From contig NC_092673.1 of NCBI RefSeq assembly GCF_964355755.1, positions 17,419,648 through 17,483,647 of the forward strand: DNA of 64,000 nucleotides. Reading direction: 5' to 3'. Source of the stretch: Antedon mediterranea (lineage: Eukaryota; Animalia; Echinodermata). This document shows positions 12,800 through 57,067 of the stretch, in pieces; the stretch's first letter is position 1; every line of letters begins with the position of its first letter. The translations under genes and the position numbers were made by a program. Below the pieces are notes generated by a model that made no database searches, had not been told where the DNA came from, and saw only the letters and a list, made by a program, of their open reading frames with translations.

Positions 12800-13642
12800 G
12801 GAGTCATCTTCATTCAGTAACACCAGCATACAGGTCATCTACATGCAGTAACACCAGCATACAGATCATCTTCATTCAGTAACACCAGCATACAGGTCAT
12901 CTACATGCAGTAACACCAGCATACAGATCATCTTCATTCAGTAACACCAGCATACAGGTCATCTTCATTCAGTAACGCCAACATACAGGTCATCTTCATT
13001 CAGTAACACCAGCATACAGGTCATCTTCATTCATTAACACCAGCATACAGGTCATCTACATTCAGTAACACCAGCATACAGGTCATCTTCATTCAGTAAC
13101 ACCAGCATACAGGTCATCTTCATTCAGTAACACCAGCATACAGGTCATCTTCATTCATTAACACCGGCATACAGGTCATCTTCATTCAGTAACACCGGCA
13201 TACAGGTCATCTTCATTCAGTAACACCAGCATACAGATCATCTTCATTCAGTAATGCCAGCATACAGGTCATCTTCATTCAGTAATGCCAGCATACAGAT
13301 CATCTTCATTCAGTAACGCCAGCATACAGGTCATCTTCATTCATTAACACCGGCATACAGGTCATCTTCATTCAGTAACACCGGCATACAGGTCATCTTC
13401 ATTCAGTAACACCAGCATACAGATCATCTTCATTCAGTAAACACCAGCATACAGATCATCTTCATTCAGTAATGCCAGCATACAGGTTATCTTCATTCAG
13501 TAACACCAGCATACAGGTCATCTTCATTCAGTAACACCAGCATACAGATCATCTTCATTCAGTAACACCAGCATACAGGTCATCTTCATTCAGTAACACC
13601 AGCATACAGATCATCTTCATTCAGTAATGCCAGCATACAGGT
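12800..13642. repeat. Minisatellite, 31-bp unit, ~27 copies
   Basis: Unit caggtcatcttcattcagtaacaccagcata. Confidence 0.95.
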
Positions 13643-13798: not shown

Positions 13799-16700
13799 AT
13801 GGAAAGGTACGTTTGTTTTTTATTTCAAATCCAACAAAAATAACCAGCTCCAATATGTAAATGTTAAAAACAAATTAAAATGTTTGAATAGTTAGCAATA
13901 CTTTAAAACTTTCTTAAAAGATTATGAAATTATAAATATTACAAATAAAGGGCTCATTCTCATCAAATATAATGATGATATTGATTATTTCCATCAATCA
14001 TCATTTTCATAAAATAGTGTAATAAATCATTATTTCTTACATTTTAACAGGAACAAATTAGAAAAAGCTTTGTTGTACAGGGGTGATTTGCAAACAATTA
14101 AACAAATTTGTAAGACGCAACCAGATCTTGTGAAATCTATCAATGAGGTATAATATTATCAAAGAAGAAATTTAATTAAAGTTTAAAATTATAGAGATTG
14201 TAATTTTCTTTATTATTTATTATAACATTTTTTTATATAATGAATTACAATTATTTTTCAATATCACACTAATGATGTTGGTAAGACCTGCATGCACTGA
14301 TTAACCACATTAGGCTAAAAATAATAATATAAATACACACTGATGATGGGGATAACCTGCATGTACTGATTAACCACATTAGGCTAAAAATAATAATATA
14401 AATACACACTGATGATGGAGGTATAACCTGCATGTACTGATTAACCACATTAGGCTAAAAATAATAATATAAATACACACTGATGATGTTGGTATAACCT
14501 GCATGTACTGATTAACCACATTAGGCTATAAATAATAATATAAATACACACTGATGATAGGGGTATAACCTGCATGCACTGATTAACCACATTAGGCTAA
14601 AAATAATAATATAAATACACACTGATGATGGAGGTATAACCTGCATGTACTGATTAACCACTTTAGGCTAAAAATAATAATATAAATACACACTGATGAT
14701 GGGGGTATAACCTGCATGTACTGATTAACAACATTAGGCTAAAAATAATAATATAGATACACACTGATGATGGGGGTATAACCTGCATGTACTGATTAAC
14801 AACATTAGGCTAAAAATAATAATATAAACACACACTGATGATGGGGGTATAACCTGCATGTACTGATTAACAACATTAGGCTAAAAATAATAATATAAAT
14901 ACACACTGATGATGGAGGTATAACCTGCATATACTGATTAACCACATTAGGCTAAAAATAATAATATAAATACACACTGATGATGGAGGTATAACCTGCA
15001 TGCACTGATTAACAACATTAGGCTAAAAATAATAATATAAATACACACTGATGATGGGGGTATAACCTGCATGCACTGATTAACCACATTAGGCAAAAAT
15101 AATAATATAAATACACACTGATGGGTATGGCAAGCCTCAGCTGTCTGGAGTATTCAAAATATTATATTATTATATCAGAGGTCCCAAATTGGGAAAGTCC
15201 ATTCGCAGGAGATTTTGTCGTGAACCACATTCAATTCGTCGGGGCGTCGAAAGTCAACGCGCAGGGAATCGAAAATCAACACGCGTGTCGTTTACGTCTC
15301 TTAATTAATTAACTAAATATGTTACATATACAGTATATACAATATTTACACATAAGTTTGCTTAATTTTTACATAGGTTTATCCATCAGTATTTTTACAT
15401 TCTTATTTTTTTTATGGACACATCCTCAGTACAAAGAATTAAAAAAATATATACTGTATTTTAACTAAAATTCAGTATATAAAATAATTTAACTTAATTA
15501 CATAGGCACAGGCCTAGCCTAGGGCTTCTACTAGGCCCTAGCTAGCTACCATTTTAACCCCCCCCCCCCAAAAAAAAAATAATAATAAGAAATAACTATT
15601 CCGAATCCGTCTTATGCTACATTACGCGAGTTAACATATTATTTCAGATGAAAAACATTGAGTTTTATATTGTTTTATCCATACGTAATTACACTGGCAT
15701 TAAAGATATAACATTAAAATGTAGGCCGTTTATGAGCTATTTCGCCGATTTCTTATCGCTGGGAAATTCCCCACCATCGACATCGATCGAGGAGTAGGCC
15801 TAGGCTAGAATAGAGGCCTAGCGTGCATGCCGGAACGGGTGGATTATTGCTATATAAATAACAAGTTTGAACAAAAGAGCTTACAACAATCTTAGGTAAA
15901 TTTTTATTAAACGTAGGCCTACTTGCTTGGCGAATCCATATGCTCGTATTATCGGATCGTACAGTAAAACCAAATAAAACACCGCCTCAACAACCTCGTG
16001 CGATGTGCGATCTGTTGTTCTTTGCAGCGGATCAACATTGGTAGAGTCCATTAATTATGAGGGTGTTTAAAAATGTAATAACTATTAAAAACGTGTCTCA
16101 ATCACTGTGTAATCAAAGCGTTTATTTAGTTAAAACTTGGATCCTCCCAAAATTGATAATCGCGTATTCCGGTGACCACGTGATTGATTCACGGTTGGTT
16201 GCACGCTCTTTTTTTTCTACGTCCGGCGTGTAGTAACCGTGCATGTTTATATTATTGTTACGGTTTAACAAAGGCAGTGCATACAAATAAAAATACAATA
16301 ATAGACCACAGAGACTGCATGAATAGACATTGTTTCAACATCCTGCCTCACTTTTGTCTAGTTATTTATTGATTATTGTTGACCTGGGCTGAGCCTGGGT
16401 GTAACCGTAAATCAATTTGGCCAAAAATATGGGGAAATTTGAAAATGCGGTAAAAAAAATCAAAATGCGGTAGAAAACGTTGAGATAGCGGTAGCGCGGT
16501 AGATGGGTTCTAAAAGCGGTAGACTACCGCGAGTAGCGGTAGACTTGGGACCCCTGTTTTCACGCTACATCACAAGAGAGGACTCAATCAGATATAAAGC
16601 AAGCAGCAATTTTAGGACTATAGTTTATAGGTCCCAGCTGCTGGACCCAAAAAACATCTGGGAAAAGTGTCTATGAGGGTTCACGGTTGAACGATTTTGG

Positions 16701-19700
16701 ATTCTTGCCCTTTGATTGGTTGACTTCAATGCAAATGGTTTAACCTAAATTTGTTATCGTATCTAGTTTAACTTAATTATGATATTAGTTTCATTGGGTG
16801 TTAAAAATCAGTACCAAAAGTATGTACCAACTTTCTCTACCATTGAGTAAATATTCTAGAAGTTGCACTTAATTTACTGAAATTTCTCATTACGCAAATT
16901 TATATATAAATTCATTAAACTGCTTATTGGCCTCATATTTTTAATATCTGAACATTTGTTTGTACAATTTTATGAAAGTATTTTTTCTCATTACGCAAAT
17001 TTATATATTAATTAAGTAATAGGCTAACAAATCTCTAGATCTGATCCATGGTAAGATAATCTATTAAACCCAATTTCACATAATGTCTGTTGTCGGTATT
17101 ATACACCAGCAAATTTGCAAAAGAAGGTAATGTACAGGGATTTGCTAGTGTAATAGGCTAACATTATATAGATATGCTGTGGTAAACCATTCTATTTTGT
17201 TCTACTCATTTATTAATAATGATAATTATGATTATTTATCACAATATTTAGTAGCAATTGTTGTTGTTTGTATTGAAAAAAAAAACAAACAATTTTACAT
17301 AATGTCTGTTGTCAGTATTTATAAACTTTATTATGATTCCTTTCCAGAATGGTGACACTCCATTACATTCATATCTGGGGAGCGGATATAGATCTACCTT
17401 AGAAATAGTGACTTGTCTCATTCAGCATGGGACACCAGTAGCATTGCAAAATAAGGTAATGTACAGGGATTTGCTAGTGTAATAGGCTAACATTATATAG
17501 ATATGCTGTGGTAAACCATTCTATTTTGTTCTACTCATTTATTAATAATGATAATTATGATTATTTACCACAATATTTAGCAGCAATTGTTGTTGTTTGT
17601 ATTGACAAAAAACAAACAATTTCACATAATGTCTGTTGTCAGTATTTATAAACTTTATTATGATTCCTTTCCAGGATGGTGACACTCCATTACATTCATA
17701 TCTGTGGAGTAGTATGTATCCACCTACCTTAGAAATAGTGACGTGTCTCATTCAGCATGGGGCACCAGCAACATTGCAAAATAAGGTAATGTACAGGGAT
17801 TTGCTAGTGTAATAGGCTAACATTATATAGATATGCTGTGGTAAACCATTCTATTTTGTTCTACTCATTTATTAATAATGATAATTATGATTATTTACCA
17901 CAATATTTAGCAGCAATTGTTGTTGTTTGTATTGAAAAAAAAAACAAACAATTTCACATAATGTCTGTTGTCAGTATTTATAAACTTCATTGTGATTCCT
18001 TTCCAGTCTGGTGACACTCCATTACATTCATATCTGAGGAGTGGATGTACTGCACCTACCTTAGAAATAGTGACGTGTCTCATTCAGCATGGGGCACCAG
18101 TAGCATTGCAAAATGAGGTAATGTACAGGGATTTGCTAGTGTAGTAGGCTAACATTCTATAGCAGGCCTCGAATTTTACCGCGGCCAGTGCCGTCGGTGC
18201 CCTCCCAGTTGGCCTCAATGCCCTCGAAAATTAATAGCACCCACGGCCACTACTGGCCTGCCCTTTTTTTGCGTTGGCCGTGAGTGCCCTTCCCGAGTTT
18301 TACCACAATAAAAACCACTAAAGTAGATAGAAAATAATGTCAAGAATATCGGACGAGGCGCAAAACTATCGCCTGTCTTCGTTGCAAGGGGATTTCCCTA
18401 AACGCATTTAGAGAAAACATCGAACATATTTATATAACCAAAACAATATCGTCCCGGCCGCCGTGCGTGGTAAATAATGGTATAGATAGTACATTAAAAT
18501 ACAGGGGTGTACACTTTTAATAATAAAGCTAAAAACGTTCCTCGATCGGAGGTCACTGAAAGTATTAAAGTCGCACCACCCCCGCCTCAATAATCGAGCT
18601 AGCCGCCTTCGTTGAAAAAAAAATTACACGCACTCCTTGTCCTAGCCAGCCTATCCTCCCGCCGCCGATCCGATCAACAAACACACGCGATTCAATACAT
18701 TGGGAAAACAATTCCATTTGACGCACACGCACCCTCTGATAAGAAATTTCACACGACGTCGTCGTACGTGTGAGAGTACGAAGGATCGGTCGTTGGAAAA
18801 ACAATTCCTTTTGACGTACACGCACCCGCTGATATGAAAATACCATGTGCGTTCCTGCATGGTGTAGTCCATTCCATTATACGTGTAAAATTAGGGGTGT
18901 CAACTTTTAGTACTAAAGTTAAACCGGTACCTCAACCCGAAGATCGTTGGAAGTATATTGTATTTATATTTTATCGCACCCACCTCAATAATCCAGCCGA
19001 CAGATCATCGAAAAATCTTGTTTAACGACGTCGTACACTAAATTAACAAACGCGTTTTTACCGAACTCAAGGAAATGGTATAGTCCACAATACACGTGCA
19101 GAAGGCTAAACGAGAGAGAGGGGTTGGCGTCCGTCCGTCCGTGTTTTGAATTCTTATGAATATGGATTATACTAACAAAAAAGCTTCAGAAATCGAAACT
19201 CGGAAAATAACAATAATTTATATTCTACAACATAATGTCATTGGCTTGATTTTTACCGTGGTTAACACTCTGTGTATGAATAGTTGTAGTTAAGGCCTAC
19301 AAACAAATTGTTTTTGTAACCTGTGTTCTCCGTCCGCTACGCCTTTAGTGCTGCTAAGTGCTTGCTGTTGTTAGGGTCTTTACCCGTTGGGCCTGGCTTC
19401 ACATGCCTTTTTTTGATCGCATTGTTTGAAACTAAACGAAACAACTGTGAACGCTAAACATCGTACCTTAATAATTATTATTTATATGGATCGTAAATAC
19501 ACGTAATATTTATATGAAATACAAAAAGATGTAGACAGTCCTCTCCTACTACTACTACGCAATCTGATGAATAGGGGAAATACCCCCAAAAATGTTTGCG
19601 GGTAGAATTTTTTTTTTTGAAAAAAATTCCACCCGGGCGCTCAACCGGAAACAAGCTATTTTTAAATTTTGGCCTATTTATTAAAATATTTTTTAATTTT

Positions 19701-22700
19701 GGCCTTGGTGCCCCTTCGATTTAAAACAAATGGCCTTGGTGCCCTCCCATTTGGCCTTGGTGCCCCTCAAATCAATGAAAACCGGAGGCCAAATGGCCTT
19801 GCCCCTAAAATCCCCAAATTCGAGGCCTGCTATAGATATGCTGTGGTAAACCATTCTATTTTGTTCTACTCATTTATTAATAATGATAATTATGATTATT
19901 TACCACAATATTTAGCAGCAATTGTTGTTGTTTGTATTGACAAAAAACAAACAATTTCACATAATGTCTGTTGTCAGTATTTATAAACTTTATTGTGATT
20001 CCTTTCCAGAATGGTAACACTCCATTACATTCATATCTGGAGAGAAAATATCCACATACCTTAGCAATAGTGACTTGTCTCATTCAGCATGGGGCACCAG
20101 CAACATTGCAAAATAAGGTAATGTACAGGGATTTGCTAGTGTAATAGGCTAACATTCTATAGATATGATGTGGTAAACCATTCTATTTTGTTCTACTCAT
20201 TTATTAATAATGATAATTATGATTATTTACCACAATATTTAGTAGCAATTGTTGTTGTTTGTATTGACAAAAAACAAACAATTTCACATAATGTCTGTTG
20301 TCAGTATTTATAAACTTCATTATGATTCCTTTCCAGTATGGTGAAACTCTATTACATATATATCTGTGGGCTGGATATACTGCACCTACCTTAGAAATAG
20401 TGACGTGTCTCATTCAGCATGGGACACCATTAGCATTGCAAAATGAGGTAATGTACAGGGATTTGCTAGTGTAATAGGCAACATTCTATAGATATGCTGT
20501 GGTAAACCATTCTATTTTGTTCTACTCATTTATTAATAATGATAATTATGATTATTTACCACAATATTTAGTAGCAATTGTTGTTGTTTGTATTGTAAAA
20601 AAACAAACAATTTCACATAATGTCTGTTGTCAGTATTTATAAACTTCATTATGATTCCTTTCCAGTCTGGTGACACTCTATTACATTTATATCTGGGGAG
20701 TGGATATAGACCTACCTTAGAAATAGTGACTTGTCTCATTCAGCATGGGACACCATTAGCATTGCAAAATAAGGTATTGTACAGGGATTTGCTAGTGTAA
20801 TAGGCTAACATTGTATAGATATGCCGTGGTAAACCATTCTATTTTGTTCTACTCATTTATTAATAATGATAATTATGATTATTTACCACAATATTTAGCA
20901 GCAATTGTTGTTGTTTGTATTGACAAAAAAACAAACAATTTCACATAATGTCTGTTGTCAGTATTTATAAACTTCATTATGATTCCTTTCCAGGATGGTG
21001 ACACTCCATTACATTCATATCTGAGTAGTGTATATGCACCTACCTTAGAAATAGTGACGTGTCTCATTCAGCATGAGGCACCATTAGCATTGCAAAATAA
21101 GGTAATGTACAGGGATTTGCTAGTGTAATAGGCTAACATTGTATAGATATGATGTGGTAAACCATTCTATTTTGTTCTACTCATTTATTAATAATGATAA
21201 TTATGATTATTTACCACAATATTTAGCAGCAATTGTTGTTGTTTGTATTGACAAAAAACAAACAATTTTACATAATGTCTGTTGTCAGTATTTATAAACT
21301 CCATTTTGATTCCTTTCCAGAATGGTGACACTCTATTACATTCATATCTGAGGAGTGGATACCCTACCTTAGAAATAGTGACGTGTCTCATTCAGCATGG
21401 GACACCAGTAGCATTGCAAAGTAAGGTAATGTACAGGGATTTGCTAGTGTAATAGGCTAACATTCTATTCTATTTTGTTCTGGTTTACCACATTATTTAG
21501 CAGTAATTTTTACTGTATTGTCTCATATTATGGCATATCTGCAGCATTGCAAAATAGGGTAATGTAGGCTTACAAAGAATTGTCAGGACAATTTCACATT
21601 TTATTGTTATCAGTATTTATAAACTTCAACTTCAGTATCAATTAGCCTCCATATTAATCAATAGTATTACTACCTCAAAGAGTAGTATTATTTAATCAGA
21701 CTTACAGATATAGAATTCTCAAGTGTTTGATTTTTTTCACATTTTTCTCTTTTTACACATAGCACATTCTAACAAGTTTGTTTTGATTTAGATATTCATT
21801 TATAAGTCAACTATAATTGTAATGTGTTGTTGTTGTTTTAATATTTCATTTGTATCTGGATAGTATCCAAATATTATTTTCTTTGAAAGTTTATAGTAAA
21901 ACTATTTGTTGTTTTATATTATGGCTCAAACATTTTAACACATCTACCTACTGTTCCAAAGTAAACTTTTATTCAATTTATCTCTCTCTCTCTCTCTCTC
22001 CTCCATCTTTCAATGTTGAAGGCGGTAGACTATAAACAGCAGCACTCAAGTTTTGGTTTGGATACAGGAGTTATAGGTGGCGCACTGTACAAGTTGATGT
22101 CATTTATTAGCAAATAGTAATTTCTATTCACGTCCTAATTTACAACCAATGTTAAAAAATAGTAAATCTATGTGTTATCACATGATGCTCTTTCATCCAA
22201 TCTCTAGATGGTAAATGTTTGAGCCATGACATAATACTGTATGTATGTGATGCATAATTAAAGTGTGTTATATTGTATATCAATAATTTCTCAAAACTAC
22301 TAATAACTAAACCCATTTTTTTAATAGGATGGAAATACACCTGTCTCTCTTTTAGAAAGTAACAGGTGGATAAAGGAGCATAGTAAAACTGAAATTTTAA
22401 ACTTCTTAGAAGGTAAGTGAAGTTTTAATTATTGAAATTTTAGGATCAACTAGTTTCATTGCAAACGATAACAATTTGACTTCTTGTTCCAAGTGAAGAA
22501 GAATGTCCAGATAAAGAAAATTAACATTTATGATATATCATTCACAGGTTTATTATAGATTAAATAATTCAGTGGGATAGTAGTATACATGGAAGTTGTG
22601 ATATGTTGCAAGATGTAAATTATTTTGCTATTAATACGATAAAAATAACACAAAAACGCAAACTTTAAAATTCCTTTGAAATAAAAATATTAAATAAATC

Positions 22701-40700: not shown

Positions 40701-43700
40701 ACTAATAATATTGTGTCTAGAGCTTCTAGACGTTTATTTTCCTTGTGCATTTTGAAGAAAGCAGGAATCTTAATTAATGATCTGTTGACTGTTTATATGG
40801 CGTATATAAGACCTATTTTAGAATATGCTGCCCCTGTTTGGCATGGCGCTATCACTAAGGACATGTCCAAGTCTATTGAAAAGGTACAAAAGAGAGCATT
40901 GCGTATCATGCTAGGTAACAACTATTTGTGCTATGATCATGCATTGTCTGTTACTGGTTTACCTACTCTTGTAGAGAGAAGAAACAAACTTGTGTTGTCT
41001 TTCGGGGAAGGCTTATTAAAATCCGAGCTGTTTAGAGAAATACTTCCCCCTCTTCATAAGCCAGCTCGGTCTCTCAGAGTCAACCGCTTTCTAGAAGTAC
41101 CTCATTGTAAAACCAGCAGACTTAGGTCGTCTCCAGTTCCCACCATGGTGGATATAATTAATAGGCACCACTAGCTCTTTTTTAGATATGTAATAAGTGA
41201 ATGTTTTAAGGTTTTTTATTCATGTATGTTTTTAATTGTATGGTACGATATCTAATTTTATTAAGATGTTTCTATTTTTATAGCAATTTTAACTAATTTT
41301 TAGTCATTTGTAATACATTTCATTTCAGTCCTTGACTGTCGTTTTGTAATATATTTTTATATACCGAATAAATAAAAAAAATAAATACATTTTTTCGTAT
41401 ACAAGAAATTAAATAATGCAGGGAGTTAAAAATAAAATTATATTAGCTAATTTCCAAATTTCATTCCAACTCAATTCATACATATCTTTTCCATTTTTCT
41501 TAATTTTTTGATATACATAATTGTTTTCATGATCAGTTCTCAATTAAAATGTTAGACATCAGTACAAATACATTTTGTTATATATCAGAATATCATAGAC
41601 ATTGGTTGTGGTTGAAAATTTTAGATAGGCCGTGAAAACGTAGTAGCCTACAACAACTCTTACTGTAGGCCTAACTAGTTAGTCATAGCCTTTCTAATTT
41701 TATTGCAATAATGTCTTGCCTAGAGCATAGTGCATGAGATATTCTACCCAGGCCTTCACCTATTCTTTACTACTCTGAACTTGTGTGTGCATAGCTAGAT
41801 CAAATGAAACACAATTATGGAAAAGTCCATTAATTATGGTGATTATTTCGTTTTAATTACACTTGATACTGTGGTTTATTAAATCACATCCCTACGTCAA
41901 CAGTCACATATTTCTGTAATCATATAGGCAATAGTTTAAATACATCAAGAAATTGGTACGACTTAATTTGGACATGACTATCTTCCAACTCCACTCCCTG
42001 AGCCTCAAGTTTATCCATCCCGTAATTGGCGAGTTGCTTGCTGTTAGATTCGTATGAAATAAGACCAAACAAAAAAATCATTTATTTTACTTTTTGTTCA
42101 CTCTCACAAATGTGTTCCTTTAAATATTATTTTGTTATCAGTCGAAAAGGATATTCCATTTGCTATTGCTTTTTATAAGAAAGCGTACAATGAAGCCTCA
42201 AAGTGATTTAGTATATATTTAGTATACGTCGTATACAAACGTATATAGTATATGAATGTATATGAATGTATTTTTTCGACCACTAACATGCATAGCGCCA
42301 TTGATTTTGTACCTCTGTCTTTGAATTGAAGCTTTATAAATTTTTGATATACTGTAATAATAATAATAATAACATAGGTTGGTTTTTTGCAAAGGGTTAC
42401 CTTGGACAACATACTGTACCAGTATATATCTGTCTATATATAAAGATGTGTCATCACTATCTTGTTTATATTGAAATGGATTCTATGAATAGTATTGGTA
42501 CAGTATTATAATTTATTGTATATCTTAAATCCTGTTGAACCAAACTTTTAGAACATAATATTGTAATGTTAAATTTAACTGAGGCTAAATAACTATAAAA
42601 ACAGTACTATGGTCAGATTTAGACTTCCAAGGAGTGAGTGGCTTATATTGATTAATTATCTCCTGTACAGTACCATGTTGGCTGTAAAGTCTTGTGGTGT
42701 AAGTGGTCAATTTCACTTTTTCAGACGTGCAATGTGATACAGAGACTACTGCATTTTTCAGTATTCTTAAATAAAGTCTAGCCTAAAATCTGATTAGCAA
42801 ACACTAGACTTTGTTGTTTTCTTAATCTAGCCATTATCATCAGTCGGATTTTTAAAATTAACAATTCAGTCAGACAGTTATCATTTATTAAAATAATATA
42901 TTATATCAAATTTTAAAAAAATGGCCACTGAGCATTACTTTTGTAGCCTACTGTTTGTATGGTTATGTTCTGTTTTTTTTAAAGGTGAAATAAATTATAT
43001 GATTTCTTATCAACTATGTCCTATTATTTTATTTACAGGCAGGACAGATTTCCAAAGTTTTAAAGTTGGTCTCAGTAGATGCTTTGATGATATTATGATG
43101 GAAATATACCATTGGCTAAAATTCCTACTATTTGGTCACTTGGGTTTTATTACATATCAAGATTTCAATTACTTGCTCATTGCACTTAAAGACAAAGGTT
43201 TTATCTCACCAACCAATGTTTATTTGCTGCTAGAGATTGCACAGCTATCAGAAATCAAAGCTGCTGAAGTACTTGTAATACTGTATATGAAAGACAATGT
43301 TCAGGACAGGCCTGATACAAGTTTGTCATCTTACAGAAAGCAACTGTTTAAGGCCCTGAGACTGAGAGAAGAAGACCAAAATACATTACGTGATGTTATT
43401 GATTTGTACGAGTTGACAAGTGATGACTTCACCAATATCTGGGATGCAGTTCTTTATCTGGAGATTAAGAAAGAATTAGCAGATGATTCCGTCAAAATAC
43501 AAAAGTTTGCAAATTGTCTAAGCACAAGAGCAAGAAACACACTACTTGGTATGTTATAGAACTATCCTGAAGTTAATTGTTGATGTTATGTTTATTTTAA
43601 CAAAAAAAGTTATGTAATGGTAATTTAATTTCAATAAAATAATAACACTAATTTAATTTAAAGTTCAGAATATATTAACTGATTATTTGATTATTTATAG

Positions 43701-49700: not shown

Positions 49701-52700
49701 TACCTATATCCTTGGATCTTAACATTTTGGTAAACTCATTTATGTAGATGCTAAATAAAACAGGTGATAAAACGCACCCTTGCTTTACTCCTTGATCAAT
49801 ATCAAAAATATCTGTATCAATTATACCAGAGGAGACTTTACCTTTAACATTAGCATAAAGCTTATCAATCATCCTCCATACCTTTCCTCTTATTCCTGTA
49901 TTCCAAATTGATTTCATTAAGCCGTCTCTCCATACACTATCAAATGCTTTTCGGAAGTCCAAGAAGGCCATGTATGTATGCTTACCCTGTTGTAAGCGAC
50001 AAGTTGCTATACTCTTTAAAACAAAGATATGATCTTCGCATCTATACGAAGGTCGAAAGCCTCCCTGGACTTCCGAAAGAATAGCATTGTCTTCAAGATA
50101 GAGAGAGATATTTTTGGCAACTATCCTATTAAAAATTTTGGATATACAAGAGGTTAACGATATCCCTCGATAATTATTGAGATCATTGCGATCCCCTTTT
50201 TTGTAAATAGGAACAATTACACTAATATTCCACTCGCTTGGTATTTGTTCTAGTTTTAAAATTTGTAAAAATAGGTCTAATATAGATCTGATTAATTTGT
50301 CGCCACCATTCTTAATTAATTCATTTGTTATATTATCTAGACCTGGTGACTTATTATTCTTTGCCATTAGTATAGCCTCTTTTACAATATCATAATCTAT
50401 CTTAACATCATACAAACAATTTTCGTCAACATCTTTATCATATGTACAATTTGTTTTTGTTTGATTTCTAATATTATTAACAAAACGACTTGTAAGGTAA
50501 GTACCGCAATCATTAAGATTCATATTGGCTTTGCCAAGATTTTCCCAGTAATCTTTTACAACCTCATTCATTTTCCCTTTTTCAACAATGTTTTCACCAG
50601 AGTCTCTTGATTTAATACATTGAATATTTTTACTGTTATTTGTATTGCCTTTTAGCACTTTCCAAAAGTCTTTACAAGATTTACCACCTTTGTTTGCAAT
50701 TTCAATAGATTTCCTAACACGTTTTTCTGTGATTTTCTGAGCAACAAGTTGCTTAACATGTTTCTGTGCCTCTTTATAATGTTCCCACAGTGTAACGCCA
50801 TTATCATAATTCATAGTATTATTTGTGTTATTATTATCAGTACAGTTCCTATTAGTAATTTTATTATTTTTAACCCATGTTCTGTGTTCTCGCGACGCAA
50901 TTTTCCTTTTTTTGATGGCATCGTCTATCTCTTTGTCAAACCACGGTTTGTTTTTATTATTTACACGTCTAATTCCGATACCTTCAGTGGCTGCCTCGAT
51001 AATTTTTTCCTTCCACAAATCCCATGTAGTATCGATATTCTTTTCGTTACTAACATTCCAGTCATTAAATTTTTCTTCAACTTTTTGTTGATAAAAGGAA
51101 TAATCTTGGTTATGTTTAATATCCCAAATTGGTTTATTTTGATTACTTGTCTGTTGATTACTTATGTTAAGATTATTTAGTGTTAACCATAACACACAAT
51201 GGTCACTCCCAAAACTAAATTGTCTATGCTCATCAATAATTAGTTTATTTACATAATTTATTAAGGATTTTGAGCATAACATGTAGTCTATCGTGCTTTG
51301 TTGATTATTTCTTTGCCATGTTATTTTACCTTCACAAAAAATAGTACTATTAAGGTTAGTTAAATTAGCGTTTTTAGTAAATTGTATTAGCCTTTCTCCA
51401 TTTGAGTTTATTACGGGGTCTCCGTTATATATGGAGTCACCAATCCGTGCGTTAAAATCACCTAGAAGTAGAATAAGAGGATTCATTTCCTTCTCTTCAA
51501 TTCTAATTATTTCAGAGAGCAGTTGGGCGTATAGATCGTCAGTCAAATCATTGTTTACTCCCTGGACCGGGAAATATGCAACACAAATATATAATGGTAC
51601 CTTATCTACGCTAACTTTTACCCATAATCTTTCAAAATCATCATCTATACAGTTTAAAACATTTTCAGATGTAACCACTATTTTGTCTGATAGGAATAAC
51701 CCAATACCACCCCCCTTCTTCCCGTTACGTTCTTTCCCAACCCAGTTATAACCTTTAATAGAGATTGCGTTGCTCTCTTTTAAGTGTGTTTCAGCAATAC
51801 CAAGTATATCAATACTCTTACTATATATAAACTTTTCAATTTCATAAATCCTATGTTTGCTTAAGCAGTTAATATTATTAAAACATATATTTAGGCTATT
51901 TTTACCTACAGGTATATTTTTCTTTTTCTTTCTACCTCCTCTTCGGTGTTTTGTTTGTCGCTTTGGAGCTCGAGGATGTATATCGATGTTTAGTTCATTG
52001 TTAAGTTCATCAGGTAGGATGCTATAAATGTTCGGTGTTTCGATATTAATATCTACATTGCTGGCGTTGTCCTATGTTGAACGATAATATTACTCCAATT
52101 TTACTAGGTCCAGAGGTGGTCTAACGGAAGCCGACATTAGGGGTTTTTACCCTTTCACACATAAGCCGACGTTCGCGAATTACCGCAATATTACCGTCTT
52201 ACAGCTTTGTGAGAAAGGGGCTTAAGACACTGTGAAACAGAGTAGGTTTAGTTTTACGAATATCAAGCATTTCAATAATGGTAACCAACAGAAAACGTCC
52301 AAGCCAGAACGTCCTTCTAAAACCTTTTTACCAAATCATTATCATTCCGAGAATCATCCTCTAAACTTAACTTTGAGAGCACATCTGTATCACATACAGG
52401 GTAGTAGTAGGTTTAACATTTATAAATAACAAGGAGTGCTATTTTTTAGAATATGCTCTCATATATATATTTACTGAGAAAGTTGATTAACCATCGTTTC
52501 ACCTCAATGGTTGCACTAAATACAGATTAAAAGTAACCTTTAGTATCATATGTGTTTTTATTTAATCCTGACTAAAAGGCCCAATTCAGTTTGCTATATA
52601 CCATAAAAAGTCGTAAGATCCCATGACAAATATAGCATCTTAGCTCATAAACATTGTGCTCCTGCTGAATTATATTAGTATACTATTAATGCACTGTAGT

Positions 52701-55700
52701 TTTAGTTTTAATTTTTTTTACATTTTTATTTCCAGCCTCAAAGAACGCATACAGACATTTTTCAAAGGTAGTGTAATCATATATTATATTATATTTAAGG
52801 GTTAATTGCAATTTCTAAAGCAAAATATTTTTTTCAAATATTAATTATGTTTTTGTGGTCCTACAAAATATTATTTTATTTCATCAAAACCAACAGCAAT
52901 GAATGTTGCCACTTAATATAACATAATACAAATATTTTAATGTTAGTTTTTATTTATATATCAGTAAACACCAATTATAAATATAAAGATAAACCCCAAA
53001 TAAAAAATTTAATAATCTTTAAGAGCCATTGTCTGTAAGAATCAAAGAAATATCAAAAAGAGTGGCAGACTCAAAAAAATGGATTTCTTTCAAATTTTGC
53101 ACATGGCTATATATGTGTTGAAAGAAATCAAATATGAAGTATTTTTTATTTCACACGTATATTTCCATGGCAACGGCCAAATTTGTGTTTTTGACAAATT
53201 TTGTCCGTTTTTAAGGTTTTTTAAAATGGATATTGGTACTACTTTGATGAACGATATTTTTGTGTTGTTCATTTAATTATAAAAAATAATTAGTGTATGC
53301 ATAATAACAATGCATTGTGTACCTGTTTCAAATTTTTTTATTTTTTTTTATTTCATACCTTGGGAGATACCATTTATTTAAAAAGGGGTGTTTTTCACTT
53401 TTTTTAAATTGTTCAATGCAACTAAACTTTACTTCACCATAACGCCCAAAGTGGTGTATTTTTTTAGCTGATTTATTACAAATAGGTAGTTCTAATGTTT
53501 AATAATTGATTTCTAAAATAAAATACTGGGGTAAATTTAAAATCTACAAGCAGTGTTGCGAGAAACATAGGCATTTTTATAAAAAAAAAAAACATGGTAT
53601 ATTAGTAAAAACATTTTATTTTCTTTGATTATTTGATTTGAAACTCATTGGTCAGAAAAATTCTTAATGTTTTATATAGTTCTAGTTGTGTTGTGAGAAA
53701 AAAAAATTAATTTTTAACTATAGATTCTGTAATTCCCAGTTTTAATGTCATTTTATAGGTTATATCCTCTGGAAATTTGAATAAATTATCAGATCGTTGT
53801 GAATTTTAATCTTTGCAACAGATTACTCCACTCTTATTTTGAAGCTCCTCTTTCATTTGTTTACTTCTTTTATTTGCTAACCTAAGCAGATCCCACATGC
53901 CCATCCACCACCACTTTCGACTACCCCCCCCCCCCCCACCCCGACCAACTATAACCACAAAAAGATAAACTGCAACACTTTGGTCGATCATCCACTATAG
54001 AGTGTCAAATGCATGCATTCAAGCACCACCCACACTGCCGCTACTATCGCCCCAATGAATAGACGGATTCAAACTCCTCCATCCCATCCCCTCCCCTATT
54101 CTCCAAGCCCCCACCCACCCCAAGTTAAAAATTGCAATGCAAAAGATAGGACATAAAGTTAAGTTTTTAGACCCTCGCCTTCAACCCCCTAACTATTTAA
54201 AAGTCCTGGATCCACCACTTTCCCCTCCCCAAAATAGAACCAATCAAAAGTCAAGGTATGTTAATGCTACATAACAAATATTGAAGCCCTGATTTGAAAT
54301 TTCATTTCATTTAAGGTCAGCATGTAAAATATCACACTTTATTATTAAATATTGGTTTTAAATTCTATATTTTTTTTTACTATGATGGTTGGATTCAGTT
54401 ATAATTATTAATTAATAATTATCTGATAATTATTTAATTTCCCTTAGTTATGCATAGCAACAGTTACTATGGTAACTAAAAATGAGATATTCTTTAGATT
54501 TTGCATATTTATCTCATACAAATTTAAATTTGTAGATAATTAGCAGGCATGCCTTATTTGCATTTTCAAATTACCGTTTCACAAGGTCATATTCGTAAGC
54601 ACTTTCTTCTGTGATTATTTTTATTCATGAAAATCCCATATTTTATTTACAGCGGCCACCTCCCTTGACGGACGCACTTTGAAAAGCCTGTTTGTTCTTC
54701 CTATCTAATTAGTGCATTTGGTGCTTACCGTAAGCAACTGCGGGCACCTTTTTATACTAAAAATGAGATTTTTTGTAAGCGGCCAATCGAAAAATGCGAT
54801 ACTTATTGCATGGACCTATGAATTAGAGGTGCATGTTTATTGTATTTCTTTATATATTAGCTTTATTTTGAAGAGGTTTTAAAAACATTACTGTGAAGAG
54901 ATGAGAAAACTACACAGATTTTGACCGACCATTTTTCATATAATAACAGTTTTTAAAATTTGTCTGAAAATGCTAAAAAATACTAAACCACCTGATTATA
55001 AATAATAATAGGCCTACAATTAGCTGGAAAATTGAGAGTTTTGTTTCGTTAAGAATATCGTATATTGCCATAAGTGATTTTGACCCTTTATCGGCAGAAC
55101 CTCCCGTAAGGGGTCACCGCCCGTAAGTGGCCACTTTTCCAGGTCCCGAGGGTGGCCACTTACGGGAGGTTCAACTGTATTTAAAAAAACAATTATCCTT
55201 AGTTATACATAGAAACAGGTTCTAAGATAACATAAATAATACATTTTGACATAACTTGACCCAACAAATGACCCTTTCACAAGGTCAGACATTTTCTGGG
55301 ATTCAGTAGATAAGTAAATTTGGGAAAAGGTAGTAAAGCTATGTAATCAATTGTTTGTAGTCATGAAACCCCATATTAAAAATATTGTACTTAGTTACGT
55401 ATAGAAACAGTTGCTACAATACACTATAGGTAAAATGTTGATGTCATTTGACCTCAATATGTAAACAATTTTTTTTTTCATGAAACTCCATATTTAATTT
55501 TTTTTTTAAATATCATTTGTTACGTAAACAGGTTTAAGATAACACTATAAAGGTCATTTTTTTACCTTTATTCAGATTCGTCAAGACTTTCTTTCTGAGA
55601 TTATTAGGATTCAGTATTTAAAGTAAAATGTTGACCTCAAAATGAATGAATTTACAAGGTCAAGTTTGTCATTAATGGAATGCAGTAGAAGTAAAATTGA

Positions 55701-57067
55701 GAAAAATTACAAATGCAATCAATTCTTTGTATTTATAAAAACGCCATTTTTTACGTTTAAAAAAAAATTACTTTCCTTAGTTACACATAGAAATGGTTGC
55801 TAAGGGAACACTATGGGTAAAATAAGAAAATTGTTGAGAATTGTTATGAACTATCTTGTAAATTTTGATCAAACATTAATAGTTGTAGTAAAGTGGGGAC
55901 CTGTCCTGTTTTGCATTCTGACCCCTTTTGACCTCAAATGACCTATTTACAAGGTCAGATTTTTTGGGAGGTCTTTCTGTATCTCTTTACACAAAATAGA
56001 TTTAAAAATTTATAAAAACCATTGACGCAATTATTTCCAAGTTTAACATTATTTTCCATCAACTACATATTTCAATGCAAAATACTGTTTTTCTGGCAAT
56101 TAATTGAAATAAACCTGGCAACACATTCTCCTATTTTATCTAAAATATTCGTATGACTCTAGTAGCATTATGACAAGCCACATATACATTTTATTATTGG
56201 ATTAGCCATATTTAAATTGTGTTTCATGTGTTTTGTTTGTTGATATTTTGTTATATTTTTTGTATTTTTCGTATTTTCCTGGCAACACAAAACCTATGTA
56301 CGAAATTTACCCCAGTGTTTTTTTCGTGATTATTGTTGACAAACCTATTGACTATCAAATTAAAAAACCTCATTGATTTAAAAACACCACTTTGGAAGTT
56401 ATAGGTACGTTTATGAGGTATACTTTTATAAAAAAAATATTTCTTAAAAACACCCCTTTTTAAAATAATGGTATCAACCAAACTCCATTTTGTAATTTAT
56501 TTTTTTTCTACATTAAATGGAACTCAATACATGTTGTTTACACTGCTATAAACAAAAACTGTATACTGTAAGTATTTTTGGTTAAAATAAGTATACAAGT
56601 TTGTACTTTTTCACTATAGAAAATCTGTGAAAAATGGCAAAAACATCAAAATTTGGATAATTGACCGTTGTCATGGCAACGGAGGCTAAAAATTGAAATG
56701 AATGTTGTAGATATGCTTTTTATTGAAATGTCTATTCATGGTAAAAATTTGAGAGAAATCCATTTTTTTACATCTGCCACCAAATCTTTGATTTTTACAG
56801 ACAATGGCTCTTAAATCTCGATAAAAAGGAATGAGCGGAGAATTTTAATATTAAAAATGCTTTATTTTTCTTTTAATTTCAGAGAACACTTGGTTAATAA
56901 TTTGTTGTATTTTAGGCTTAGTCTTGATAATCTTGATGGGTAAATATGACGTAATCCTAAAAATGTGTGGTATCTTTGGATTGGCCATAGCTCTATGCAA
57001 ATTTATCTATGAACTATGGAAGAAAAAAAAGTCTTCACTACCAAAAAATGAACCAACAAATGTCTAA
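13799..57067 (+). CDS. Kinase-less Roco protein: ankyrin array - Roc GTPase - COR - tandem DED-like - C-terminal TM segments, ~1329 aa, 30 coding exons
   Basis: Exons: 13799-13806, 14051-14147, 17348-17455, 17675-17785, 18007-18117, 20010-20117, 20337-20447, 20666-20773, 20994-21101, 21321-21425, 22328-22412, 24784-24876, 25242-25401, 25701-25786, 26117-26175, 26452-26497, 27357-27514, 28524-28613, 28790-28969, 29132-29389, 29760-29957, 30652-30846, 31036-31341, 31506-31577, 32198-32411, 43039-43548, 43701-43763, 46217-46241, 52736-52767, 56883-57067. All introns are GT-AG with compatible phases; the total is 3990 nt with no internal stop seen. The small linker exons are the least certain. 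Confidence 0.85.
14051..14147 (+). CDS. Ankyrin N-cap-like exon (NKLEKALLYRGDLQTIKQICKTQPDLVKSINE)
   Basis: ttttaacag acceptor, phase 2 to 0, resembles A..GDL..VK.L N-caps; joins in frame to the first repeat exon. Confidence 0.75.
14266..15123. repeat. Minisatellite, ~71-bp unit, ~12 copies (intronic)
   Basis: Unit acctgcatgtactgattaaccacattaggctaaaaataataatataaatacacactgatgatgggggtata. Confidence 0.95.
15176..16556. mobile_element. Non-autonomous hAT-like element
   Basis: TIR CAGAGGTCCCAA / TTGGGACCCCTG, subterminal gcggta repeats at the right end; no TSD recognised. Confidence 0.55.
17348..17455 (+). CDS. Ankyrin exon 1: NGDTPLHSYLGSGYRSTLEIVTCLIQHGTPVALQNK
   Basis: G.TPLH...LEIV..LI.HG ankyrin consensus, phase 0-0, 108 nt. 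Confidence 0.92.
17675..17785 (+). CDS. Ankyrin exon 2: DGDTPLHSYLWSSMYPPTLEIVTCLIQHGAPATLQNK
   Basis: 111 nt, phase 0-0. Confidence 0.92.
18007..18117 (+). CDS. Ankyrin exon 3: SGDTPLHSYLRSGCTAPTLEIVTCLIQHGAPVALQNE
   Basis: 111 nt, phase 0-0. Confidence 0.92.
18163..19829. mobile_element. Non-autonomous hAT-like element inserted in an array intron
   Basis: 14-bp TIR CAGGCCTCGAATTT / AAATTCGAGGCCTG, 6-bp TSD CTATAG; removing it restores a 219-nt intron; a second copy starts at 63618. Confidence 0.92.
20010..20117 (+). CDS. Ankyrin exon 4: NGNTPLHSYLERKYPHTLAIVTCLIQHGAPATLQNK
   Basis: 108 nt, phase 0-0. Confidence 0.92.
20337..20447 (+). CDS. Ankyrin exon 5: YGETLLHIYLWAGYTAPTLEIVTCLIQHGTPLALQNE
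   Basis: 111 nt, phase 0-0. Confidence 0.92.
20666..20773 (+). CDS. Ankyrin exon 6: SGDTLLHLYLGSGYRPTLEIVTCLIQHGTPLALQNK
   Basis: 108 nt, phase 0-0. Confidence 0.92.
20994..21101 (+). CDS. Ankyrin exon 7: DGDTPLHSYLSSVYAPTLEIVTCLIQHEAPLALQNK
   Basis: 108 nt, phase 0-0. Confidence 0.92.
21321..21425 (+). CDS. Ankyrin exon 8: NGDTLLHSYLRSGYPTLEIVTCLIQHGTPVALQSK
   Basis: 105 nt, phase 0-0. Confidence 0.92.
22328..22412 (+). CDS. Ankyrin C-cap-like exon (DGNTPVSLLESNRWIKEHSKTEILNFLE)
   Basis: G.TP..L...EI..FL C-cap pattern; phase 0 to 1 bridges the array to the linker exon; GTAAGT donor. Confidence 0.85.
22985..23995. repeat. ~120-bp direct repeats flanking a degenerate repetitive insert
   Basis: 22985-23106 resembles 23870-23995 (cattc..gg.aaacaatttacgatagga...ttcacaca); the insert has internal ctatctat repeats and ends ttttttactatgggta. 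Confidence 0.55.
25242..29300 (+). CDS. Roc GTPase domain exons
   Basis: G1 GQGGVGKT, G2 VTDGI, G3 FNIWDHGGQ, YIVVFDL, G4 IVGTHKG, G5-like YFAIEN; preceded by the typical Y.EALK.G. Confidence 0.92.
27622..28208. mobile_element. MITE-like element with ~45-bp inverted repeats
   Basis: agtagattcttgtcacttgattggaggattgtgggtcacatgata (~27637) vs tatcatgtgacccataatcctccaatcaaataaaaagaatctact (~28147). Confidence 0.7.
29290..32411 (+). CDS. COR domain exons
   Basis: PLKW, LNFLYDLGEIVY, VVLDP..LVEI, KGIL...LL..LW, LVALMIQLGFIC, FFVPLRL, YYDF.GYLP..LF..LI and a terminal C.C...H...C. Confidence 0.88.
30218..30517. mobile_element. piggyBac-type MITE, 300 bp
   Basis: TTAA|CCCTTTCACTG ... CAGTGAAAGGG|TTAA. 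Confidence 0.88.
32500..33414. mobile_element. MULE/foldback-like non-autonomous element
   Basis: Inverted arms built of 15-bp repeats (caagtcggcccc/caactcggcctc); 9-10-bp TSD (T)CATCCCTAC at 32490-32499 and 33415-33424. Confidence 0.85.
33560..34170. repeat. Minisatellite, 88-bp unit, ~6-7 copies
   Basis: Period 88 (ORF track starts at 33709, 33797, 33885, 33973); the last unit is split by the LINE and resumes at 36591. Confidence 0.93.
34171..36590 (-). mobile_element. Internally deleted RTE/RTEX-like LINE (partial RT, ORF 36412..34727)
   Basis: KSPGIDG, PIFKKGD...NYRGISL, QAGFR, FIDFKRAFDSV, QGSPLS..LF, FKYLG; the xADD segment is absent; C-terminal C..C..EDEYHF...CP lies in another frame; 12-bp TSD TAGCTGTGATAT (34159-34170, 36591-36602). 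Confidence 0.9.
36646..37313. mobile_element. hAT-like MITE
   Basis: TIR CAGGCCCGTATGCAG / CTGGATACGGACCTG, G-runs inside the ends, flanking CTATA repeated. Confidence 0.65.
39100..39800 (-). pseudogene. Degenerate Ty1/copia pol remnant
   Basis: Protease-like HCGATFHII...NFDPKHNY.LAD and integrase-core-like TSRPYSLHQNGTAERYWRTFFE, then TGQIPY; many stops and deletions. Confidence 0.6.
40460..41386 (+). mobile_element. 5'-truncated CR1/L2-group LINE (RT C-terminus, ORF 40467..41174)
   Basis: W...N.M..KPSKC, LLGVII..DLKW, YIRPILEYAAPVW, IEKVQKRALR; A-rich tail with AATAAA near 41370. Confidence 0.88.
43039..43548 (+). CDS. Tandem death-effector-domain-like exon (170 aa, phase 1-1)
   Basis: F..FKV.LS....LKFLL....F..LL..L...GFISPTNVYLLLEI, then a second unit LSSYRKQLFKAL...IWDAV..LE, as in tandem DEDs; in phase with the COR-terminal exon. 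Confidence 0.7.
46322..47304. repeat. Duplicated block, copy 1 (continues at 52226-52350); possibly Helitron-derived
   Basis: Colinear similarity to 57336-58640. Confidence 0.8.
48045..52083 (-). mobile_element. Young RTE/RTEX-like LINE, 5'-truncated, (TAAA)n tail
   Basis: Tail (ttta)n at 48043-48065, ~8-bp TSD ATAATATT (48037-48044, 52084-52091). Confidence 0.92.
48373..52071 (-). CDS. LINE ORF2: APE endonuclease + reverse transcriptase + C-terminal CCHC finger
   Basis: Open for 1232 codons; N.N.L, IAETHL, GGGIG, LGDFNA, IDYML, SDH; RT QGCVLSP, FWADDIVLL, YKYLG; C..C...EDIHHFILNC. Confidence 0.95.
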   Translation of the reverse strand, partial: DNASNVDINIETPNIYSILPDELNNELNIDIHPRAPKRQTKHRRGGRKKKKNIPVGKNSLNICFNNINCLSKHRIYEIEKFIYSKSIDILGIAETHLKESNAISIKGYNWVGKERNGKKGGGIGLFLSDKIVVTSENVLNCIDDDFERLWVKVSVDKVPLYICVAYFPVQGVNNDLTDDLYAQLLSEIIRIEEKEMNPLILLLGDFNARIGDSIYNGDPVINSNGERLIQFTKNANLTNLNSTIFCEGKITWQRNNQQSTIDYMLCSKSLINYVNKLIIDEHRQFSFGSDHCVLWLTLNNLNISNQQTSNQNKPIWDIKHNQDYSFYQQKVEEKFNDWNVSNEKNIDTTWDLWKEKIIEAATEGIGIRRVNNKNKPWFDKEIDDAIKKRKIASREHRTWVKNNKITNRNCTDNNNTNNTMNYDNGVTLWEHYKEAQKHVKQLVAQKITEKRVRKSIEIANKGGKSCKDFWKVLKGNTNNSKNIQCIKSRDSGENIVEKGKMNEVVKDYWENLGKANMNLNDCGTYLTSRFVNNIRNQTKTNCTYDKDVDENCLYDVKIDYDIVKEAILMAKNNKSPGLDNITNELIKNGGDKLIRSILDLFLQILKLEQIPSEWNISVIVPIYKKGDRNDLNNYRGISLTSCISKIFNRIVAKNISLYLEDNAILSEVQGGFRPSYRCEDHIFVLKSIATCRLQQGKHTYMAFLDFRKAFDSVWRDGLMKSIWNTGIRGKVWRMIDKLYANVKGKVSSGIIDTDIFDIDQGVKQGCVLSPVLFSIYINEFTKMLRSKDIGIRINDTWMGSLFWADDIVLLANNELEMKRMLDLAGNFAKEWKLCFNFEKSNILITGKRVDKVRQWKLGNGFISETESYKYLGVHISRKLNDHIQIENVIKKGQRLIAYVKSIISSFDNFNRVYYGDTLWRSIVLPSINYGCSVWCSLSRIDIDKLERLQLQMARYILKAPRNTPCAALYGELGWSPINKIHNALRMKYFHRIIKMENYRWPKIMFIGMLQLNCEFKDLRYKFLSCINDILLKCNCESKNIFTTLSNYKEVYFPISEILRKLNYIMIDEWRIELQNKSSLHIYETLKSKPGLENYLIDKNNFEGAALKFKARSNTLPLNDRTANWNIDNNKKCKLCGTNSDEDIHHFILNCPALNNIRNQELFHLYVDMYRNGSKDMFDTFYTSPENDKLKYILGYSDNLIDEECENILDSFCKRYLKQAWQFRNDSLNSMTQ
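53023..56810. mobile_element. Non-autonomous TTAA-target element (Kolobok-like) with long imperfect TIRs
   Basis: TTAA|GAGCCATTGTCTGTAA ... TTACAGACAATGGCTC|TTAA; inverted similarity extends ~550 bp. Confidence 0.85.
54649..55178. mobile_element. Tc1/mariner-type MITE nested in the Kolobok-like element
   Basis: Right end ...ggccacttacgggaggttcaactg|TA; left end appears truncated (TA|cagcggccacctccc). Confidence 0.5.
56883..57067 (+). CDS. Terminal exon with two hydrophobic segments: ENTWLIICCILGLVLIILMGKYDVILKMCGIFGLAIALCKFIYELWKKKKSSLPKNEPTNV*
   Basis: Strong polypyrimidine acceptor, phase 1 matches the preceding exon, TAA at 57065, AATAAA at ~57198. Confidence 0.7.

Follow-up and report, generated by a model that had tools for sequence, protein, structure and literature searches.

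We analysed a 64,000-nucleotide stretch of the genome of the crinoid Antedon mediterranea (assembly GCF_964355755.1, contig NC_092673.1, positions 17,419,648 to 17,483,647 of the forward strand), called the window below and numbered from its first letter, and within it a gene at 13799 to 57067. This locus probably holds one gene, which belongs to an expanded Roco family of crinoids and would encode a membrane-tethered intracellular sensor of non-self. In the predicted protein an array of ankyrin repeats (ANK) is followed by a Roc GTPase domain, a COR domain, a tandem death effector domain (DED) and a membrane end. A preliminary description of this DNA had read the same order of parts, and all of them stand except the form of the anchor, which is likelier a two-helix hairpin than one helix. 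That description left unnamed the exon cassette encoding one ankyrin repeat. The cassette, under apparent diversifying selection, is the strongest feature of the gene.

Ankyrin exon cassettes

Eight ankyrin exons of 105-111 nt, one repeat each, lie at 17348..21425 on the plus strand and encode aa 36-325. They are found at 17348-17455, 17675-17785, 18007-18117 and 20010-20117 (exons 1-4) and at 20337-20447, 20666-20773, 20994-21101 and 21321-21425 (exons 5-8), and all 8 are symmetric, in phase 0-0. Exon and intron together form a tandem unit of about 328 bp, with 93-96% identity among units. Pfam detects Ank on one exon frame at an E value of 0.0023 and scores above its cut-off on the paralogues P0065 and P0066.

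We compared the eight units in 28 pairs. Introns differ by a p-distance of only 0.025. In the first 10 codons of the exons, the proportion of replacement differences (pN) is 0.129 and that of silent differences (pS) is 0; the values rise to pN 0.41 and pS 0.22 in codons 11-13 and are pN 0.068 and pS 0.039 in the last 20 codons. The loop is 5-7 aa long, its length changed by in-frame indels. Counted as derived alleles, codons 1-13 carry 17 changes at roughly 29 replacement sites, whereas 203 intron sites carry 13 (Fisher p 1e-10, a value that takes introns as the neutral yardstick and counts units that are not independent). The variable codons 1, 3, 11 and 12 map to the hairpin and inner helix of the repeat, and we take them to be the positions randomised in designed ankyrin libraries. 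Hairpin and inner helix make up the ankyrin binding face (PMC4986451; this and the other papers cited below are represented by excerpts). The introns are near-identical, and replacement changes cluster on the predicted binding face.

The number of repeats seems to vary as well. The window gene has 8, and P0065, P0066 and P0069 have two each as annotated. In contigs of sequencing runs aligned to the locus, a joint 17142->21841 omits all eight ankyrin exons; all 4 runs, drawn from two studies, contain it, its shorter side measures 54-77 letters aligned at 88% likeness, and it may belong to an allele or a paralogue. A zero-repeat form would keep the frame. Searching the window with one unit by blastn, we found a degenerate, internally deleted unit 5′ of the array (17071..17127, plus strand) and further ankyrin remnants at 21541-21626. 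The intron between ankyrin exons 3 and 4 holds a 1667-bp element with terminal inverted repeats (18163..19829), whose two ends match each other in inverted orientation over their first 14 nt and which is flanked by a 6-bp duplication. At window position 21076 the runs differ from the assembly at full depth, and Glu282, in ankyrin exon 7, is Gly in the runs.

Gene model, Roc-COR core and death-fold end

The gene was rebuilt from the sequence as 30 exons on the plus strand, from the ATG at 13799 to the TAA at 57067, giving 3990 nt or 1329 aa, and the only stop is the terminal one. The preliminary description had claimed a complete 30-exon frame of 1329 aa, and this independent rebuild gave an identical exon count and length. 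The window is AT-rich animal DNA without a long host open reading frame. All 29 introns are GT-AG; 28 of the 29 donors read GT[AG], compared with 49% of random intronic GT, and the pyrimidine share is 72% at acceptors and 52% in introns. Of the 29 junctions, 28 are each spanned gap-free by one or more annotated models of crinoid proteins; such support comes from annotated models, which are predictions and not transcripts. Junction 1 is too near the start for the gap-free crossing test, and the first seven residues of the 1329-aa frame also open the paralogue models P0065 and P0069. The weak points are the junctions after 32411, 43763 and 46241, which are crossed solely by P0059, the RefSeq model of the same locus, and the junction 52767-56883, crossed solely by one paralogue, P0004. 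On sequence grounds, the gene model is real and well supported.

Exons 1 and 2 (13799-13806 and 14051-14147) carry the start codon and the ankyrin N-cap, aa 1-35; P0065 and P0069 share this N terminus and continue into their two ankyrin repeats. Behind the array, a C-cap exon (22328-22412) and a linker exon (24784-24876) encode aa 326-384, with both junctions spanned by P0066. Three short linker exons at 43701-43763, 46217-46241 and 52736-52767, all on the plus strand like the exons above, also occur in P0059. Two paralogue models together tile the architecture of the window gene: P0066 has the layout ANK-linker-Roc, P0061 runs from Roc-COR through the DED pair to a hydrophobic, transmembrane (TM) end, and the two are 85% identical across 156 overlapping residues. 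P0004 consists of DED pair, linker and hydrophobic end.

The public model of the locus, P0059 (XP_071947397.1, Antedon mediterranea), is 100% identical to the exon at 43039 and covers the Roc-COR-DED part only; it has no ankyrin array, P-loop or membrane exon. It starts at 26098, downstream of the P-loop, and agrees with the rebuilt model to 52767 (99.3% identity), apart from a donor at 26181, 6 nt beyond ours. Its last exon differs from the rebuilt one and was not found in the window by tblastn. We left a candidate exon at 53759 out of the model, since it has an in-frame stop after eight codons. This stretch (53759-53784, plus strand) has a plausible acceptor and the eight codons and stop are in the frame of exon 29, so it is a candidate alternative last exon; if used, it would yield a soluble protein that lacks the hairpin. 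The four sequencing runs behave as genomic DNA when aligned to the locus, and their read depth, higher on Roc exons than on introns, was not used as copy number. One of them, presumed to be RNA, covers introns as the rest do and shows no splice joints, so it carries no information on expression.

The Roc domain, recognised by Pfam, is encoded by eight plus-strand exons, 25242-25401, 25701-25786, 26117-26175 and 26452-26497 followed by 27357-27514, 28524-28613, 28790-28969 and 29132-29389. COR comes immediately after Roc, as in Roco proteins: COR-A starts within the last Roc exon, five further exons follow (29760-29957, 30652-30846, 31036-31341, 31506-31577 and 32198-32411, plus strand), and COR ends in a Cys-rich stretch. 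Pfam Roc scores 34.7 bits on P0059, which lacks the P-loop (cut-off 27), and 55 bits on full paralogues; COR-A scores 42.1 bits on P0059 (cut-off 35.3) and has an E value of 1.4e-6 on exon 29760 alone. The best PDB matches of a full paralogue's Roc are prokaryotic Roco proteins and the LRRK2 Roc. The nucleotide-binding motifs read GQGGVGKT (G1), TDGI (G2), WDHGGQ (G3), THKG (G4) and AIENS in the G5 region, with G1-G3 intact. The G4 consensus is T/N-H/K-x-D, and its Asp is tied to guanine specificity. Here G4 is without this Asp. Among rows matching the G3 pattern, all 17 of the Antedon clade have Gly (15) or Ala (2) in its place, and all 7 outgroup rows have Asp. Since G4 lacks the Asp, GTP switching may be altered. 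In the P-loop, Gly423 is Glu in the sequencing runs and in the paralogues of the clade; the runs differ from the assembly at full depth at this position (window 25356). We read the differences at 25356 and 21076 as private variants of the window copy or of the individual.

A single exon at 43039..43548 (plus strand, phase 1-1) encodes aa 1059-1228. Pfam gives no match to this exon alone. It finds DED at E <=0.001 in 35 of 58 relatives of the DED pair, mostly below the curated cut-off, and a profile of 17 sequences aligns the full caspase-8 prodomain with an E value of 2.4e-4. A fold predicted from the single sequence was poor (predicted local distance difference test, pLDDT, 43) and was not used. 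Modelled from an alignment of 35 sequences, the exon reaches a pLDDT of 92.7, and this model matches the caspase-8 tandem DED (7lvj) with a Z score of 15.6 and a root-mean-square deviation of 2.6 A over 153 residues. The nine best structural matches are all tandem DEDs, with death domains at Z 6.2 or below; a Foldseek search with the model gave none at E <=0.001, and its top rows are again all tandem DEDs. By this model, the exon is a caspase-8-type tandem DED. The preliminary description had allowed that it might not be a death fold, which these values exclude. A complex prediction with three copies of the pair scored 0.00 with the alignment unused and says nothing either way.

The preliminary description had also proposed recruitment of FADD and caspase-8. 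This finds no support among the relatives: none of the 58 nearest has a caspase domain (five best families considered per protein), and they include 7 NACHT proteins, 3 kinases, 2 NHL-repeat proteins and several consisting of DED only. The pair also occurs on a very-large GTPase and on ZU5, TPR-STAND and MAM-domain proteins (among P0001-P0058), and all 15 relatives checked for origin are from Antedon. In the window gene, 40 linker residues separate the DED exon from the hydrophobic end, with no caspase or pseudo-caspase domain. The pattern makes this Antedon-expanded tandem-DED module a candidate private signalling network. A broken copy of the tandem-DED exon, with frameshifts and stops, lies at 6727-6914 (plus strand), 7 kb upstream of the start codon. 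It matches the N termini of P0013 and P0017 and is likely debris of a neighbouring family member.

The last exon (56883..57067, plus strand; its junction is the one spanned by P0004) encodes two hydrophobic segments at about aa 1271-1287 and 1292-1311, with hydropathy peaks of 2.46 and 2.16, then a basic KKKK run and the stop. Hydrophobic ends occur in 5 paralogue models. Because there are two segments and a basic run, a membrane hairpin with both protein ends in the cytosol is likelier than a single tail anchor.

Family and alternative readings

A Roc-COR query gave 28 matches. Of these, 16 lie on one chromosome-length Antedon contig of 36.19 Mb, the window locus included; 5 are on other Antedon contigs, 1 is from Anneissia japonica and 6 are distant. 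The Anneissia protein (P0084, ANK-Roc-COR, 38%) is sister to an Antedon clade of 17 rows, in which the window copy belongs to a young subclade of 5 members, with up to 93% identity. Long branches were flagged at the base of this tree, which was built from proteins other than P0059 with a G3 pattern match and at least 300 residues after it, and without DAPK1, LRRK and MFHAS1 sequences. The gene family is multi-copy and expanded in Antedon, and the ankyrin units diverge; this excludes the single-copy, conserved and invariant gene that the preliminary description had named as a refutation. Around the core, N-terminal modules are ANK, the DED pair, a kinase or a death domain, and C-terminal modules are DED pairs of two types, death domains and hydrophobic ends, the last in 5 of the 16 models. 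In P0069 (XP_071947615.1) the same ankyrin N terminus precedes another type of Roc-COR (31% identity), and the protein continues with a second Roc-COR of the window gene's clade and a hydrophobic end. This layout represents either module swapping or two genes fused by annotation.

If the locus encodes a non-self sensor, the variable ankyrin array would bind ligand, and binding would switch the oligomeric state of the Roc-COR core. Clustered tandem DEDs could then recruit DED-bearing partners in a homotypic assembly leading to inflammation or cell death. The partners may be crinoid DED-only adaptors such as P0033 and P0040 and kinase-DED proteins such as P0045 with the same type of DED, caspase-8 being downstream at most. 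The array may have diversified by unequal crossing-over or conversion between near-identical introns, together with selection on contact residues. We infer the joined transcript, ligand binding, switching, the partners and the immune role.

Several points weigh against such a sensor. The RefSeq model of the locus is without the ankyrin array and has another last exon, all four modules never occur together in an annotated model that we inspected, and the joining of exons is a genomic prediction, for which the four sequencing runs cover introns and list no exon-exon joints. The Roc has lost the G4 Asp. As to selection, the exon-only comparison of replacement with silent changes (25 to 4) is non-significant at p 0.14, the highly significant Fisher value carries the limits given with it, codons 11-13 adjoin the indel loop, and the binding face was mapped from the ankyrin consensus.

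With this in mind, we considered that the 1329-aa product may not be made, the ankyrin block being separate or silent, or the copy a recent, unexpressed birth-and-death duplicate, with an mRNA like that of RefSeq. P0059 omits everything before 26098 and ends differently, most paralogue models begin at or after the linker and are free of ANK, the introns reach 10.6 kb and contain three pieces of long interspersed nuclear elements (LINEs), and a frameshifted DED pseudo-exon lies at 6727-6914. We nevertheless think this rather unlikely: 1329 codons are stop-free over 43 kb, the P-loop is in frame just upstream of the P0059 start, and ANK is joined to Roc in P0066, P0069 and Anneissia P0084. P0066, moreover, starts with the same intron-tail translation and so has the same cassette layout. 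There is very little to recommend the idea that tandem duplication produced the array neutrally, the loop being under relaxed constraint and the variation non-adaptive. The non-significant exon-only test, the degenerate units beside the array and the joint without all eight units would fit it, but relaxed constraint cannot give replacement divergence 5-16 times that of the adjacent introns, the loop indels are all in frame, and all 8 exons are free of stops and have intact splice sites.

Other readings accept the gene and change its role. Instead of microbe sensing it could serve allorecognition, in graft or gamete compatibility, or be a death switch in stress or regeneration. DAPK1, which has ANK, Roc-COR and a death fold, regulates death; fungal NLRs with similar repeats include allorecognition genes (PMC4986451), and brown algal ROCOs show an abiotic stress response (PMC11378527). 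Even so, we give such roles a low probability: at least 16 models, swapped effectors and a DED pair that NLRs and a very-large GTPase also carry fit a pathogen-driven repertoire better, and a housekeeping switch would not concentrate replacement changes on one face. It is more doubtful still that Roc-COR and hairpin are themselves the effector, a ligand-driven membrane assembly that damages an organelle or pathogen vacuole in the manner of dynamin-like and guanylate-binding GTPases, with the DED optional. The clade-wide loss of the G4 Asp would suit this, and so would hydrophobic ends without this DED pair in P0069, P0074 and P0077 and the pair without a hydrophobic end in P0062, P0068, P0072 and P0073. 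However, paralogue models ending in death folds outnumber hairpin ends, a long helical stalk is not evident, and Roc-COR has been described as a dimerising switch, not as a membrane-remodelling GTPase (PMC4104024). A bolder proposal than the non-self sensor as set out above is that the cassettes are skipped combinatorially or somatically rearranged in immune cells, any subset of the eight preserving the frame. This might give a repertoire within the animal resembling designed ankyrin repeat proteins (DARPins), with a Roc switch devoid of guanine specificity and a private tandem-DED network shared with NLRs and kinases; we consider this improbable.

The window also holds mobile elements and repeats. 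Antisense to the gene, intron 28 holds an uninterrupted 1232-codon LINE frame for endonuclease and reverse transcriptase (48376-52071, minus strand), which looks young. Between COR and the DED exon, the 10.6-kb intron contains a truncated LINE reverse transcriptase (34730-36424, minus strand; Pfam RVT_1) and a second LINE-like, C-terminal fragment (40410-41171, plus strand; no Pfam match). Just past the last COR exon, at 32490-33414, is a 925-bp element with a 16-bp repeat array; in three runs of one sample the contigs lack it (joint 32489-33415), which makes it an insertion polymorphism. Upstream of the gene we noted a THAP domain fragment (1675-1896, minus strand) beside an acidic, transposase-like frame (109-972, minus strand), and a region at 7800-10700 that resembles decayed transposon coding sequence and has no Pfam match. 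Minisatellites of 89, 31, 71 and 88 bp, in 7-27 copies, lie at 4038-5019, 12803-13642, 14260-15123 and 33576-34170, one of them immediately upstream of exon 1 and another in intron 2.

Comparison with known systems

DAPK1 is a death regulator with the layout kinase-ANK-Roc-COR-death domain, and the window gene shares its order of ANK, Roc, COR and death fold. It differs in having no kinase, a tandem DED in place of a single death domain, a hairpin, many copies and fast evolution. The absence of a kinase follows from the frame, which has 35 residues ahead of the first ankyrin exon, and none is present in the N termini of P0065, P0069 and P0084. With the tandem DEDs of caspase-8, cFLIP and MC159, the DED pair shares the predicted fold over its whole 169 residues (Z 11-16), at 16-19% identity; unlike them, it is C-terminal to a GTPase, caspase-free and of an Antedon-expanded type.

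A parallel in diversification lies outside animals. Brown algal leucine-rich repeat (LRR) ROCOs are candidate immune receptors (Zambounis et al., PMC3341825; Teng et al., PMC11378527). Like the window gene, they have a Roc-COR core behind the sensor, one repeat per exon, gene expansion (local in the algae, and in Antedon seen as 16 of 28 matches on one contig) and inactive repeat remnants in introns, and some members end in transmembrane segments (PMC3341825, PMC11378527). They also respond to abiotic stress (PMC11378527). Diversifying selection acts on their binding face; in the window gene the signal is strong when measured against introns and non-significant against silent sites alone. Their repeat exons are 72 nt long and in phase 2, whereas the ankyrin exons are 105-111 nt and in phase 0. 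Alternative splicing has been shown for the algal genes, and the excerpts report no death-fold effector. Since brown algae are an unrelated lineage, the likeness is convergent. In fungi, NACHT and NB-ARC NLRs with ANK (Dyrka et al., PMC4986451) resemble the window gene in high repeat identity, in repeat-number polymorphism and in positive selection at sites of the inner helix and beta-hairpin, and those with concerted, positively selected repeats include allorecognition genes. They differ in having a STAND ATPase, an N-terminal effector and a C-terminal sensor, the reverse of the order here, and in the window gene the introns are duplicated along with each repeat. The nucleotide-binding domain of the window gene is Roc and not a STAND ATPase, so by domains it is not an NLR; it may work like one in its sensor-switch-effector layout.

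The preliminary description had likened the gene to NLRs in that layout and had not recognised the domain combination as a characterised system. The logic is not new: repeat-Roc-COR-effector receptors have been proposed for brown algae and for bacteria, where LRR-AP-GTPase-COR systems with variable C-terminal effectors are described (Kaur et al., PMC8195603). The bacterial systems likewise combine fast-evolving N-terminal repeats, a Roc-COR switch and an exchangeable C-terminal effector, with several paralogues per genome; unlike the window gene, they have an LRR sensor and TIR, caspase, GT4 or other effectors and are intronless (PMC8195603). Among animals, Trichoplax has 17 ROCO genes with CARD, death, TPR and LRR modules (PMC4104024), and Aplysia has TIR-ROCO proteins (PMC9334734). 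In the ESM Atlas, ANK-Roc and Roc-COR-death or -CARD proteins form large clusters, with scores of 0.91-0.96, in sponges, molluscs, arthropods and oomycetes. Such invertebrate Rocos share lineage-specific expansion and swapped interaction or death-fold modules with the window gene and are mostly uncharacterised. Since ANK-Roc and Roc-COR-death are common in invertebrates, the domain string alone is of modest novelty and not a new class. In the literature searched (supplements and most subscription journals excluded), we found no description of an echinoderm ANK-Roc-COR-DED family, nor, for any animal, of an ankyrin cassette with tandem DED, hairpin and exon-level diversification. The part that merits testing is the ankyrin sensor built from exon cassettes, with apparent selection on its binding face, and its coupling to a tandem DED in a deuterostome.

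Loss of the G4 Asp across the clade offers a cheap handle for biochemistry. If our reading is true, automated annotation is missing the sensor half of such genes. An echinoderm would have independently built an NLR-type sensor-switch-effector receptor on a Roco GTPase and diversified it by the one-repeat-per-exon device proposed for brown algae, with ankyrins and a direct death-fold output. It would provide a testable ligand-switched Roco protein, relevant to the activation of LRRK2, MFHAS1 and DAPK1, and animal innate immunity would be wider than the TLR and NLR repertoires.

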